Below, in pieces: positions 3,001 to 6,000 of a stretch of DNA of 17,679 nt. Numbering within the stretch: position 1 is the stretch's first letter; the number at the start of each line of letters is the position of its first letter. The position numbers are program-made. Source of the stretch: a virus; the UHGV virus genome UHGV-1847110; one strand, 5' to 3'.

Positions 3001-6000
3001 TGTGGGATGGCGAAGATGAATATTTCTTTCCCGCACTTAATGTCAGACGAAATCCCAGCTGTACAGCTGAGGATTTTAAGTCCGGAAGTGTGCTGTACAG
3101 TGTGACATATGAGGGTGTCGTAAAAATCAGCCCCGTTCTTTCTACAGTATTTACGGCCTGAGTGCCACGACAGACGGATGTTACAGAACCGGACATATCA
3201 TTGATAAGCGTGACACCGTTTTCGTTCAGTGCTGAAATAATATTTGTTGAATAATAGTTCTCGCACAATCCCTCATTCGCCGGAATTTGTCGAAAACTTT
3301 CGAGTTTAATAATATTCAAAGCGGCTCTCCTTTTATTTTATGTCATTCGGACGTGACCACAGCAAAATGCAGTCCCGGGTGATTAATCAATAACGGTTCA
3401 CGGGTTCTGCTGGCTGTCTGCAACTGCATACTGTTAACCGGTACGGGGGAGCGGGTCCTGTATCCCGTCTGCAACTGTGCGCAGTTCATGGTCATGGGGT
3501 CCGTTGTCGGCAGACCTGAGTGCAATTGCGCCCTGCTGAGTACCAGTGGTTCTGCCATCGGACGGGCGGCATAAAAGTTAATCCGGTTAATTGTCAGCGG
3601 CTTACCTGTCAGTGCCGGAACAACCGCAAAATGAACACCTGTATGATTAATCGCTAATGGCTCAGTCGTCTTGTGTCCGGCCTGAAAGGAGAGGCTGTTT
3701 ATAGTCAGGGCGGCTTGTTGCCCTTCACCAGACTCATCCGGATATGCAAAAAGGACAACAGTATGCGACGGACATAATTTATTAATCACGCACTCCGCAA
3801 CCGTATCACCCCACGTCCGGATCGGTGTGTTACAGGTGTCCGAACATGTCTGCCACTGAGCACCGGCATCCACCGGCAACGTCACACGCCAGAAATAACG
3901 CCAGCGATCACCCCATTCCGGATCGGGGCTTGCATCCAGGTGCTGGAACTGTTCGATCGTCACGCCGGTATATCCCAGCGCCTCAAGCTGCTCCAGGAAG
4001 AACTGCTCATTTATGCCACCAGCCACATTGGCTTTTGCTTCCAGCCGTTGCTGACGCTGGCGTAATGTCTGGGCTCCAACAGGAGAGCAGGTGTCAGGTA
4101 AACCATACAATTCTTCATAACGTTCAATCAGCTCTGTTGACTGACCAGGATCGATTTCAGCCATCAGTTCATCAGTCCGCTGATGAACACGTACAAGCGA
4201 TGGTGCCAGACCATCAAGCACGCCGTCGGTATCGCTCCATGCAGGCCCCGGCGGCATCAGTCCGTACAGCAGCTTTGTATAATCATCCTGTAACGAATCC
4301 ATTATTTACTCCTTGCCGGGTCATAAGCCTGCCAGGTGATCTCGCCGAGCACCGGAAGCTCGGTCTCCCCCAGGTCAATATCCGATGAAGGGACGATTAA
4401 CCGGTGGGCCACTTCACCAGCAGACAAACTGATGGCCTCACTGATTCTGGACAGATACATACGCCCCTCTGGCACACCATCCCGTAACATCAGTGCATTC
4501 AGCTCTGCTTTTATTGCAGTCCTGATCTGCGGTGTGTCTTTCGATAATGCAATCGTCATCGGGATGACTTTTTCTGTGGCACCGAATACATACAATCCAC
4601 TTCCGGCAACCGGTGTCAGAGGAAGAATGTGCTCTCTGACTGCATTAATGACGCTTTCATCCGGAGCCGGATGTTCCGGATCGTTTGTCGCCACCATCAC
4701 GCCAACCGTTCCAATGCCTTTCCAGTGTCTGAAAGTCCATGCACGGTTAATACCCTGAACTTCTTTCGCCCAGATAACATAATCAGGGTCTGCGCCCCCC
4801 TGTGGAATGTAGTAATAACGTTCCATAACGCGGGCACGCCATATTTCCAGATTTTCAATATCTTCACCGTCTGTAATGGTGTCCGCGTACCCTGTGGACG
4901 GCAGACCACTGACGGGTGTTCCCAGTTGCATGGCAATACCATCATCCGTATTCCCCGCCGCCCCCGGTTCATCTGCCACAACAGGCACCCGGAGAAGACC
5001 ATCGGCTGCGGTCACCGTCGCCGTCGTGGTGAAGGTCACCTGATCATCACGCTGGATCTGCGTTCCCGCTGGCAATACAGGTGTTCCCTCTACGCCATCC
5101 CAGCGCACAAATCCCCGGGCTGTCACCGCATCTTTTCGCAGGCAGCGTTTGATTCTGGCGTGCCGGTACAACCAGTCTTCATCACACATGTCCGGCAACA
5201 GATTTCTGGCAAGATAATCGATATACCCGTACAACGTGTGTACGGCTGCAGCCTGTACACGGGCATACACTTCCGCATCCATACGACGAAGCAGCGTATC
5301 CTGCTCAAAGCGGGTTAATAAATCGCTCCGGATCATAGAAATAAGTTGCGGAAGGCCGGGGCGATAAAACTGACTGTCAGCCATTCAGTTCACTCCAGAT
5401 ATCATCAAAAATAATGTTGTGAATATTGCCGTCACGCTGGTAAATGGTAATGGCAAGTGCCAGCGAGTCTGTCCCGGTCCGGACAGCGTTAATATCAAGA
5501 CGGGAAGCAACACCATCCTCCACCATCCACGCCAGCGCCTCACGGGCATAATCTCTGGCAAGCTGCGGGGTTTTATTTGTCAGCTTGCTGCGTCGCAGCA
5601 GATACAGACGCGACCCCGTGCGATCATTCTGAACAGCAGGCCAGGTATCCCCCCACCATCCAAATATCTGCGGTGCATCATCATCCCGCCCGGCACGCCG
5701 CCAGGTAAAAAGCGAAATAATCACAGCACGCGTCAGAAGGTCGAGCAAAGCCCCGGTCGACACGGGTCGCCCGTTAACATTAATCATCATGATTTTCAGC
5801 CCATCGGTTGATCCGGCGTGTCAGTGATCCCGCCACCATCACCATTTTCGGTGTGTTTGTGGGCATTGTAGGTCTGCCGCATTTGCTGCATGCTGAGTCC
5901 GCCACTGTCGCAATTGTCAGTAATATCGGCGGTGGATTCGACTGGCATTTCAAAGCGCGCTTTAGGCGCGTTTTGAAAAATAATGGGCTTCCCGGCCCCG

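Follow-up and report, generated by a model that had tools for sequence, protein, structure and literature searches.

The virus genome UHGV-1847110 (17,679 nucleotides (nt); hereafter, the window) carries a gene in which the baseplate wedge protein gp48/YmfQ is followed, in the same open reading frame (ORF), by a C-terminal extension composed of repeats. This ORF encodes 319 amino acids (aa) and occupies 3343-4302 on the minus strand, on which every gene of the window lies. The window represents the morphogenesis region of an E. coli prophage that is a relative of the Shiga toxin (Stx) phage phiP27. The genes are arranged in the order portal, prohead protease, HK97-type capsid, connectors, sheath, tube, chaperone, tape measure and Mu-type baseplate. 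The baseplate genes encode DNA_circ_N/gp43, gp44, gp45, gp46, Baseplate_J/gp47 and gp48, in this order, and the gp48 gene thus has the position expected in a Mu-type operon, directly downstream of the gene for the wedge protein gp47 (4302-5384; PF04865). On the 3' side of gp48 are the genes for a 349-aa protein (2270-3319; phrog_8291), a conventional tail fibre of 369 aa (1130-2239; phrog_6859) and a tail fibre assembly chaperone (585-1151; PF02413, phrog_136). At 188 aa, the longest ORF for the chaperone shares 22 nt with the end of the fibre gene; the Prokaryotic Genome Annotation Pipeline (PGAP) calls a 176-aa protein from a downstream ATG. In the following text, compared loci have three-digit L handles and compared proteins have four-digit P handles.

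The N-terminal part of the ORF (aa 1-190; 3733-4302) is a gp48/YmfQ domain (baseplate wedge protein 3). P2 gpI and YmfQ of the E. coli element e14 are relatives of Mu gp48. The family model PF10076 (Phage_Mu_Gp48) in Pfam matched aa 13-187 with 86.8 bits (cut-off, 37.4), phrog_203 matched aa 1-205 (E = 7e-73) and the solved Mu gp48 chain 9ki1_a (180 aa) was aligned to aa 14-189 (E = 8e-8). Over aa 1-195, the phiP27 protein L53 has 92% identity; it is only 196 aa long and ends at this point with YPDEDEDAQD. Because L53, Mu gp48 and the Pfam model end here, the canonical protein stops near aa 190-196 and aa 191-319 (3346-3732) are extra. Thus, the core is a member of the PF10076 family, in which a single domain has about 180-200 aa, and the whole ORF is a fusion variant. 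The preliminary description of this DNA had proposed a complete domain with an atypical extension, and both points hold: relatives without the extension have 180 aa (Mu), 196 aa (L53) and 194 aa (the Mu-like prophage L020), and a typical length of about 320 aa is refuted. In Mu, one wedge consists of one gp46, two gp47 and one gp48, and the trimeric tail fibre docks on a gp48 loop (residues 133-155) (PMC11915804). Because the gp48 core of the window is 92% identical to L53 and the N-terminal part of the fibre has 90% DNA identity to phiP27 L54, the window gp48 is presumably also present as a single copy in each wedge and docks the fibre through an internal loop as in Mu.

The extension is 129 aa long. 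It starts with the linker SGEGQQA (aa 191-197; 3712-3732), which is the fusion junction and the point where L53 ends, and continues with seven repeat units (aa 198-319). The units are 17 aa long, except for unit 2 (20 aa), and have the consensus P-L-x-I-N-x-x-x-L-Q-x-G-x-x-x-x-E. All are encoded on the minus strand. Unit 1 is ALTINSLSFQAGHKTTE (aa 198-214; 3661-3711) and unit 2 is PLAINHTGVHFAVVPALTGK (aa 215-234; 3601-3660), which belongs to a terminal type (h-F-A-V-V) and precedes a short linker. Then come unit 3, PLTINRINFYAARPMAE (aa 235-251; 3550-3600), unit 4, PLVLSRAQLHSGLPTTD (aa 252-268; 3499-3549), unit 5, PMTMNCAQLQTGYRTRS (aa 269-285; 3448-3498), and unit 6, PVPVNSMQLQTASRTRE (aa 286-302; 3397-3447). 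Unit 7, PLLINHPGLHFAVVTSE (aa 303-319; 3346-3396), is again of the terminal type and is followed by the stop codon (3343-3345). A terminal unit h-F-A-V-x-x-x-COOH is kept in most modules, and the window, L005 and L030 agree in their layout, with two units before the linker and five after it. The BLOSUM62 autocorrelation at lag 17 gave z = 8.7, a value that none of 2000 shuffles reached even when the maximum over all lags was taken; in the N-terminal domain, used as a control, the maximum was z = 3.0. At the DNA level, two pairs of copies were found: a 26-nt pair at 3401 and 3452 (77% identity; spacing 51 nt, namely 17 codons) and a 45-nt pair at 3356 and 3620 (units 7 and 2; 73% identity). Tandem Repeats Finder reported nothing. 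The imperfect short repeats of the preliminary description are therefore real and more regular than described, with a period of 17 and seven units. The 11-mer GTCTGCAACTG given there as an example does recur at 3467, and its first copy is at 3416, not at 3414. When the extension alone was modelled with AlphaFold2, two short strands per unit and no reliable tertiary structure were obtained (predicted local distance difference test score (pLDDT) of 50.5), so that the structure prediction proposed earlier yielded a low-confidence model in which only short strands can be seen. Six modules had no match in Pfam at E <= 10, including the adenovirus shaft family, and the module had no match in NCBIfam and no sequence relative in a profile search of the PDB. 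In these three collections, no homology of the module to known adaptor domains (for example, T4 gp10-like domains) was found.

In RefSeq, PGAP treats this gene as a pseudogene ("incomplete; missing C-terminus") covering only the first 190-195 codons or so (L002 6519-7103; L003 4519-5103; L004 4534-5103), and the extension is unannotated. In GenBank submissions, a YmfQ/DUF2313 protein of 319 aa is given for the same gene. This ORF is intact in L002, L003 and L004, the very records with the pseudogene label, and also in 16 IMG/VR contigs whose gp48 is of the window type. Of 5426 complete E. coli genomes, 59 contain the extension DNA. The exact 319-aa protein belongs to a cluster of 179 members, and full-length 319-aa members are found on more than 100 contigs. 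Across the extension, only the annotated frame is open; the five alternative frames are closed. We then compared diverged modules. L005 is a true Mu-like prophage (with Com and Mom), whose gp48 of 324 aa is annotated as intact and has a very different N-domain sequence. Its module differs from that of the window at a single position in the last 91 codons; in units 1-2, the synonymous divergence (dS) is 2.46, the non-synonymous divergence (dN) is 0.33 and dN/dS is 0.13. L030, which has another gp48 type, aligns to the 122 module codons of the window without gaps, with 47% aa identity and a dN/dS of 0.29. L038 was dropped from this calculation because it has one unit fewer and the ungapped alignment was out of register in its first part. 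Thus, the extension is under purifying selection (dN/dS of 0.13-0.29 against diverged homologues). Together with the identity of 73-77% between the DNA copies, this result bears out the earlier proposal of an old, selected duplication.

The gene for the 349-aa protein follows after an intergenic spacer of 23 nt (3320-3342, minus strand), in which an AGGAG Shine-Dalgarno sequence is placed 7 nt before a TTG start codon. This start (LNII.LEGFRQIPA) is common to most of the family members read; L016 and L022 differ in their called N-termini. In IMG/VR, the gap is 22-30 nt wherever the module gene and the gene of the 349-aa family are adjacent. A weak TTG codon with a strong Shine-Dalgarno sequence 23 nt past the gp48 stop codon hints at a set expression ratio or translational coupling. 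Pfam and NCBIfam gave no match for the 349-aa protein. Its model, based on an alignment of 25 sequences, has a pLDDT of 91.2 and a predicted template modelling (pTM) score of 0.89. It consists almost entirely of beta-strands, which form two jelly-roll beta-sandwiches of the concanavalin A (ConA)-like lectin type. A Foldseek search of the PDB returned legume lectins and alginate lyase. The relatives in the ConA-like lectin, lyase and carbohydrate-binding module (CBM) fold are alginate lyases of polysaccharide lyase (PL) families PL7, PL14 and PL36, CBM4, CBM22 and legume lectins, with sequence identities of 4-15%. Among the predicted viral structures in BFVD, the whole chain matched uncharacterised siphovirus proteins with a TM-score of about 0.65, one of which is named "virion structural protein". 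In BFVD, this whole-chain fold is found as paralogues within one genome, with three copies in Serratia phage JS26 and two in Achromobacter phage AchV4. These model-based matches suggest a wider, unannotated class of virion lectin-like proteins. Conservation along the 349-aa chain is fairly even, the last 90 residues being somewhat more variable, and Q87, R91, Y125, Y126, E128, D188 and Y190 are invariant in the family.

When 1.84 billion representative proteins were searched exhaustively by HMMER with the extension as query, only eight proteins were returned. One of them, P0007, an 865-aa acidic repeat protein, was rejected as spurious: it gave six weak stretches and has no architecture in common. 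In the informative matches, the module is at the very C-terminus and the N-terminal anchors differ. P0004 (L007) is another gp48-family protein, with an Ig-like insert. P0005 and P0006 start with the N-terminal region of the lambda side tail fibre (Stf; PF08400 and PF03406), and P0002 is a partial protein of this group. P0008 starts with a P2 gpH-type N-terminal region (PF12571). In all contexts read for these matches, a homologue of the 349-aa protein is encoded by the next gene, 22-30 nt downstream. A word-indexed protein search with the extension gave one partial protein, and a profile search added a few short or rearranged proteins. For example, P0036 (202 aa) is an E. coli chimera, in which an unrelated N-terminus (MACLLNKSDMASSIGISVQAFDKWGVPP) is joined to a fibre collar and a module of five units; it probably represents what is left of a rearranged prophage. 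No tblastn match was obtained with the extension in the phage and plasmid collections or with the 349-aa protein in the phage collection, and close relatives are found only in prophages of bacterial genomes and in IMG/VR contigs. Thus, gp48-type anchors carry the module in the window, L005, P0004/L007 and L030, with L022 (a 259-aa gp48 with three weak units) as a borderline case; Stf N-terminal (Stf-N; PF08400) anchors carry it in P0005, P0006, L016, L018 and L020. The number of units per module varies from 3 to 7.

The linkage was also examined from the side of the 349-aa protein. Its family comprises 27 clusters, all annotated as "hypothetical", and the named members are from E. coli and one Raoultella. 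In IMG/VR, a module was found at 27 of 27 assessable loci; one further locus, of 28 in total, has no upstream sequence. The module gene ends 22-30 nt upstream of the 349-family gene in 25 of the 27, and in the remaining two (L029 and L030) it is in the same cluster with the fibre and chaperone genes in between. In a single E. albertii genomic locus, the module gene is immediately upstream. Among 11 further contexts, the module was clear in nine, borderline in one (L022) and undetected in one (L014). In the opposite direction, a two-unit DNA pattern was searched in 2.9 million viral contigs, and all eight stretches found have a 349-family gene on the same contig. A hidden Markov model (HMM) of the unit, applied to 1837 ORF segments, gave significant scores only for module-bearing genes linked to the 349-aa family. 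Thus, whichever of the unrelated anchors is used, module and partner are almost invariably linked genetically.

Several loci show how the pair is organised. Module-bearing genes also precede the divergent family members of L016, L018, L020 and L022. In L016, an Stf-N protein (5945-6979) with four units precedes the partner gene. These units are nearly identical (PLSINRLYLQSGAKTQE), which suggests a recent tandem expansion, and the protein ends with VINYNESDEGAE, not with a terminal h-F-A-V-V unit. In L018, an uncalled Stf-N ORF with five units precedes the partner. In the Mu-like prophage L020 (2350-6113), a normal gp48 of 194 aa, a fibre and a chaperone are followed by a separate 202-aa protein, in which a short Stf-N domain is joined to three units; the partner gene starts 2 nt downstream. 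This arrangement offers a Mu-type tail another route to the same partner. Because the pair is not followed by a fibre gene in L012, L016, L018 and L020, module plus partner is the minimal unit. The lambdoid prophage L014 (6002-8080) encodes a 257-aa Stf-N protein without units, a 64-aa ORF (ending in PLVIKHAVVSVGHENVLPVLTGRTWLTYLIQN) and a 359-aa partner homologue. The 64-aa ORF loosely resembles two units and was not detected by the unit HMM; it may be a degenerate free-standing module. Accordingly, with respect to the question raised earlier, whether homologues are split into two genes at the junction, L020 provides a module on a separate anchor beside a normal gp48, and the L014 ORF is a weak candidate only.

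The window was compared with phiP27 (L001). By blastn, window 1700-2249 corresponds to phiP27 3401-3950 and window 3733-6000 to phiP27 3948-6215. The homology breaks at window 3733 and resumes at the fibre gene. The intervening cassette of 1483 nt (2250-3732, minus strand), which contains the 349-aa gene along with the extension, has no counterpart in phiP27 and forms one clean insertion relative to it, at a single point. There, the short gp48 gene is directly followed by a fibre gene, the N-terminal part of whose product closely matches that of the 369-aa fibre. Because phiP27 lacks the extension and yet its L53 and L54 match the gp48 core and the fibre N-terminal part, the 369-aa fibre probably does not need the extension. 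Recombination junctions were found in or beside the module, in L005 at window 3686 and in L011 in the spacer before the 349-aa gene. L011 (1-4252; Logan ERR11010860) has a lambdoid Stf-N anchor with its own module lineage, followed by DNA of the window type. The downstream DNA is 99.2% identical to window 369-3320 and encodes the 349-aa protein, a phiP27/Mu-type fibre and a chaperone, so that a myovirus-type fibre N-terminus is combined with a siphovirus-type anchor upstream. In E. coli E94 (L006, 4688-5739), a deletion remnant is present, in which gp48 with one repeat unit abuts a truncated mom gene and the partner, fibre and chaperone genes have been lost. Dozens of complete E. coli genomes contain prophages with at least 99% identity to window 2200-4400, and many of the listed carriers are human isolates. 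Near-identical copies of the prophage tail end are found at two or more chromosomal positions, depending on the E. coli strain: near ydfJ in L002 and at tRNA-Ser next to hyaA in L003 and L004.

We consider it rather likely that the extension is a portable adaptor, which docks a lectin-like second receptor-binding protein on the baseplate wedge beside the normal fibre. In this proposal, short 17-residue beta-strand repeats, fused in frame to the native C-terminus of gp48, would tether the 349-aa two-jelly-roll protein to each of the six wedges. The conventional fibre, made of the 369-aa protein with its chaperone, would still dock on the unchanged gp48 core, as suggested by the close match of both the core and the fibre N-terminal part to their phiP27 counterparts. 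The phage would thus have two different host-recognition devices. Where the anchor is an Stf or gpH stub, the lectin-like protein would, by way of the module, take the place of the distal fibre, and a monomeric module would be the simplest way to serve single-copy and trimeric anchors alike. An adaptor for the 349-aa neighbour was one of the functions named in the preliminary description. The near-constant linkage of the module and the 349-aa family over unrelated anchors favours this function; from it we infer docking, and with it the binding of the partner by the module, the stoichiometry, the presence of the 349-aa protein in the virion and its binding to a glycan or receptor. Mu gp48 and TssG of the type VI secretion system (T6SS) give precedents for a single-copy wedge protein as the docking site of a peripheral protein: gp7-like TssG joins the wedge to peripheral TssK (PMC5813253). 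More tentatively, at somewhat less than even confidence, we propose that the module may be a sequence-tolerant general plug, with which the lectin-like protein would be attached to three unrelated anchors: the wedge protein of a myovirus, present as a single copy, the trimeric side-tail-fibre stubs of lambdoid phages and fibre stubs of the P2 type. Docking would then not depend on anchor symmetry, and the pair would be a natural plug-and-play cassette for host range. Seven-unit versions with two terminal-type units may hold two partners per wedge.

Several observations weigh against the adaptor proposal. The extension alone is modelled poorly, as described above. The modules of L011 and L013 are only 36-38% identical to that of the window and their partners are about 98% identical, so that module and partner do not co-vary. 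Therefore, either docking relies on the shared consensus or recombinants of the L011 type may be non-functional; co-variation of module and partner was accordingly rejected as evidence. Moreover, the anchors differ, gp48 being present once per wedge and the fibres being trimers, and one docking geometry would have to serve both. The 349-aa family lacks the hypervariable distal domain that is seen in many receptor-binding proteins, the L014 partner gene is without a detectable module, and L016 lacks the terminal FAVV unit. Furthermore, joint transfer alone could also produce physical linkage.

Other explanations were considered. An artificial fusion of gp48 to another ORF, caused by a frameshift in sequencing or assembly and named earlier as a possible artefact, has in its favour only the PGAP flag of a pseudogene with a missing C-terminus. 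This idea is refuted, and we regard it as virtually impossible: the ORF is intact in independent assemblies (L002-L004 and the 16 IMG/VR contigs), the extension recurs in the 59 complete genomes and in the 179-member cluster, the other five frames are closed, and the diverged L030 homologue is in the same frame. The extension could instead be a recombination scar, that is, the 3' end of a donor gene dragged along with the 349-aa cassette and translated without a function of its own. The junctions inside or next to the module in L005 and L011 would fit this origin, as would the handling of the gene as truncated by RefSeq/PGAP. However, dN/dS is 0.13-0.29 where synonymous divergence is saturated, the consensus is kept at 32-47% identity across anchors, and the module is in frame at the very C-terminus in every clearly detected case. 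In addition, disrupted copies were not seen except for the deletion remnant L006, and the two-plus-five-unit layout is common to the window and L030. A functionless scar is therefore improbable in our view.

Two further explanations accept a function. The module could itself be a short fibrous trimeric shaft of the triple beta-spiral kind, with the 349-aa protein capping its tip or unbound. Triple beta-spiral shafts (adenovirus fibre, reovirus sigma1 and PRD1 P5) have pseudo-repeats of 15-20 residues with conserved Pro/Gly, alternating hydrophobic residues and two short strands per unit, and the module repeat may resemble the adenovirus shaft repeats. The regular 17-residue repeat (consensus P/L/I/N/L/Q/G) with its conserved Pro, alternating hydrophobic residues and Gly would fit such a shaft. 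So would the two short strands per unit and the poor monomer fold predicted by AlphaFold2, which are usual for obligate fibrous oligomers, and the fact that in the Stf-N and gpH-N proteins the module stands in for the distal fibre of trimeric proteins. On the other hand, no sequence similarity to these shafts is detectable: the Pfam search at E <= 10, in which the adenovirus shaft family was included, and the PDB search gave nothing. The low-confidence model of the extension lends no support to this fold either. The unit number varies from 3 to 7, and the strict linkage to the 349-aa family would be left without explanation. Furthermore, one gp48 per wedge (PMC11915804) argues against a trimer; given this copy number and a linker of seven residues, trimerisation of gp48 tails is geometrically unlikely. 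Overall, we think that a shaft is unlikely. About equally unlikely is that docking occurs as proposed and the partner is an enzyme, namely a lyase or glycanase acting on surface polysaccharide, which would make it a tethered depolymerase. The seven invariant residues (Q87, R91, Y125, Y126, E128, D188 and Y190) may line a groove. However, non-catalytic CBMs and legume lectins match the model equally well, the identity to the fold relatives is only 4-15%, and neither Pfam nor NCBIfam recognises the protein.

Returning to the adaptor, we compared it with known systems. The window gp48 resembles Mu gp48 in that aa 1-190 belong to the same family and the gene follows that of gp47; it differs from the canonical single domain of 180-196 aa by the 129-aa module, which is absent from Mu, L53 and the Pfam model. 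TssK trimers of the T6SS dock through loops of TssG. The proposed arrangement resembles that of TssG, a single-copy gp7-like wedge protein that connects the inner wedge with a peripheral protein encoded by its own gene (PMC5813253), and that of T4 gp7, which links to peripheral baseplate proteins. In contrast to the T6SS, the module has no sequence relation to TssG, and TssK is not a lectin jelly roll. Systems with an anchor and a branch or adaptor are familiar from phages, for example the T4 gp10-like branching domains in Klebsiella, CBA120 and G7C-type phages and the lactococcal BppU-BppL pair. The likeness that we propose is that a module of a virion-bound protein recruits a separately encoded second receptor-binding protein and that the cassettes recombine. 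The window module differs from these systems by its 17-residue repeat and by its location on a core wedge protein or on Stf and gpH N-termini. Moreover, its partner is modelled as a globular protein with two jelly rolls, not as a tailspike or fibre, and this two-domain arrangement differs from other ConA-like proteins in being matched only by models of uncharacterised phage virion proteins. In the literature on YmfQ, gp48 and wedge-protein extensions, we found no description of the module. Thus, the logic of an anchor module that recruits a second receptor-binding protein is already known in phages; what appears to be undescribed is the module of 17-residue repeats, together with its fusion to gp48, its further use on stubs of Stf and gpH and its fixed partner family.

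This study defines two uncharacterised families, the repeat module and the two-jelly-roll partner, whose members are labelled "YmfQ family", "hypothetical" or "pseudogene" in databases. For annotation, the result means that an intact gene under selection is carried as a pseudogene in RefSeq. If the adaptor proposal is correct, a short handle of this kind, functional on anchors that are unrelated to one another, would help to retarget phages, tailocins and other contractile injection systems. For the phages themselves, it would mean that a second device for host recognition is acquired by Mu-type and lambdoid E. coli prophages through a small portable handle, which extends a core wedge protein or a fibre stub and leaves the fibre itself unaltered.

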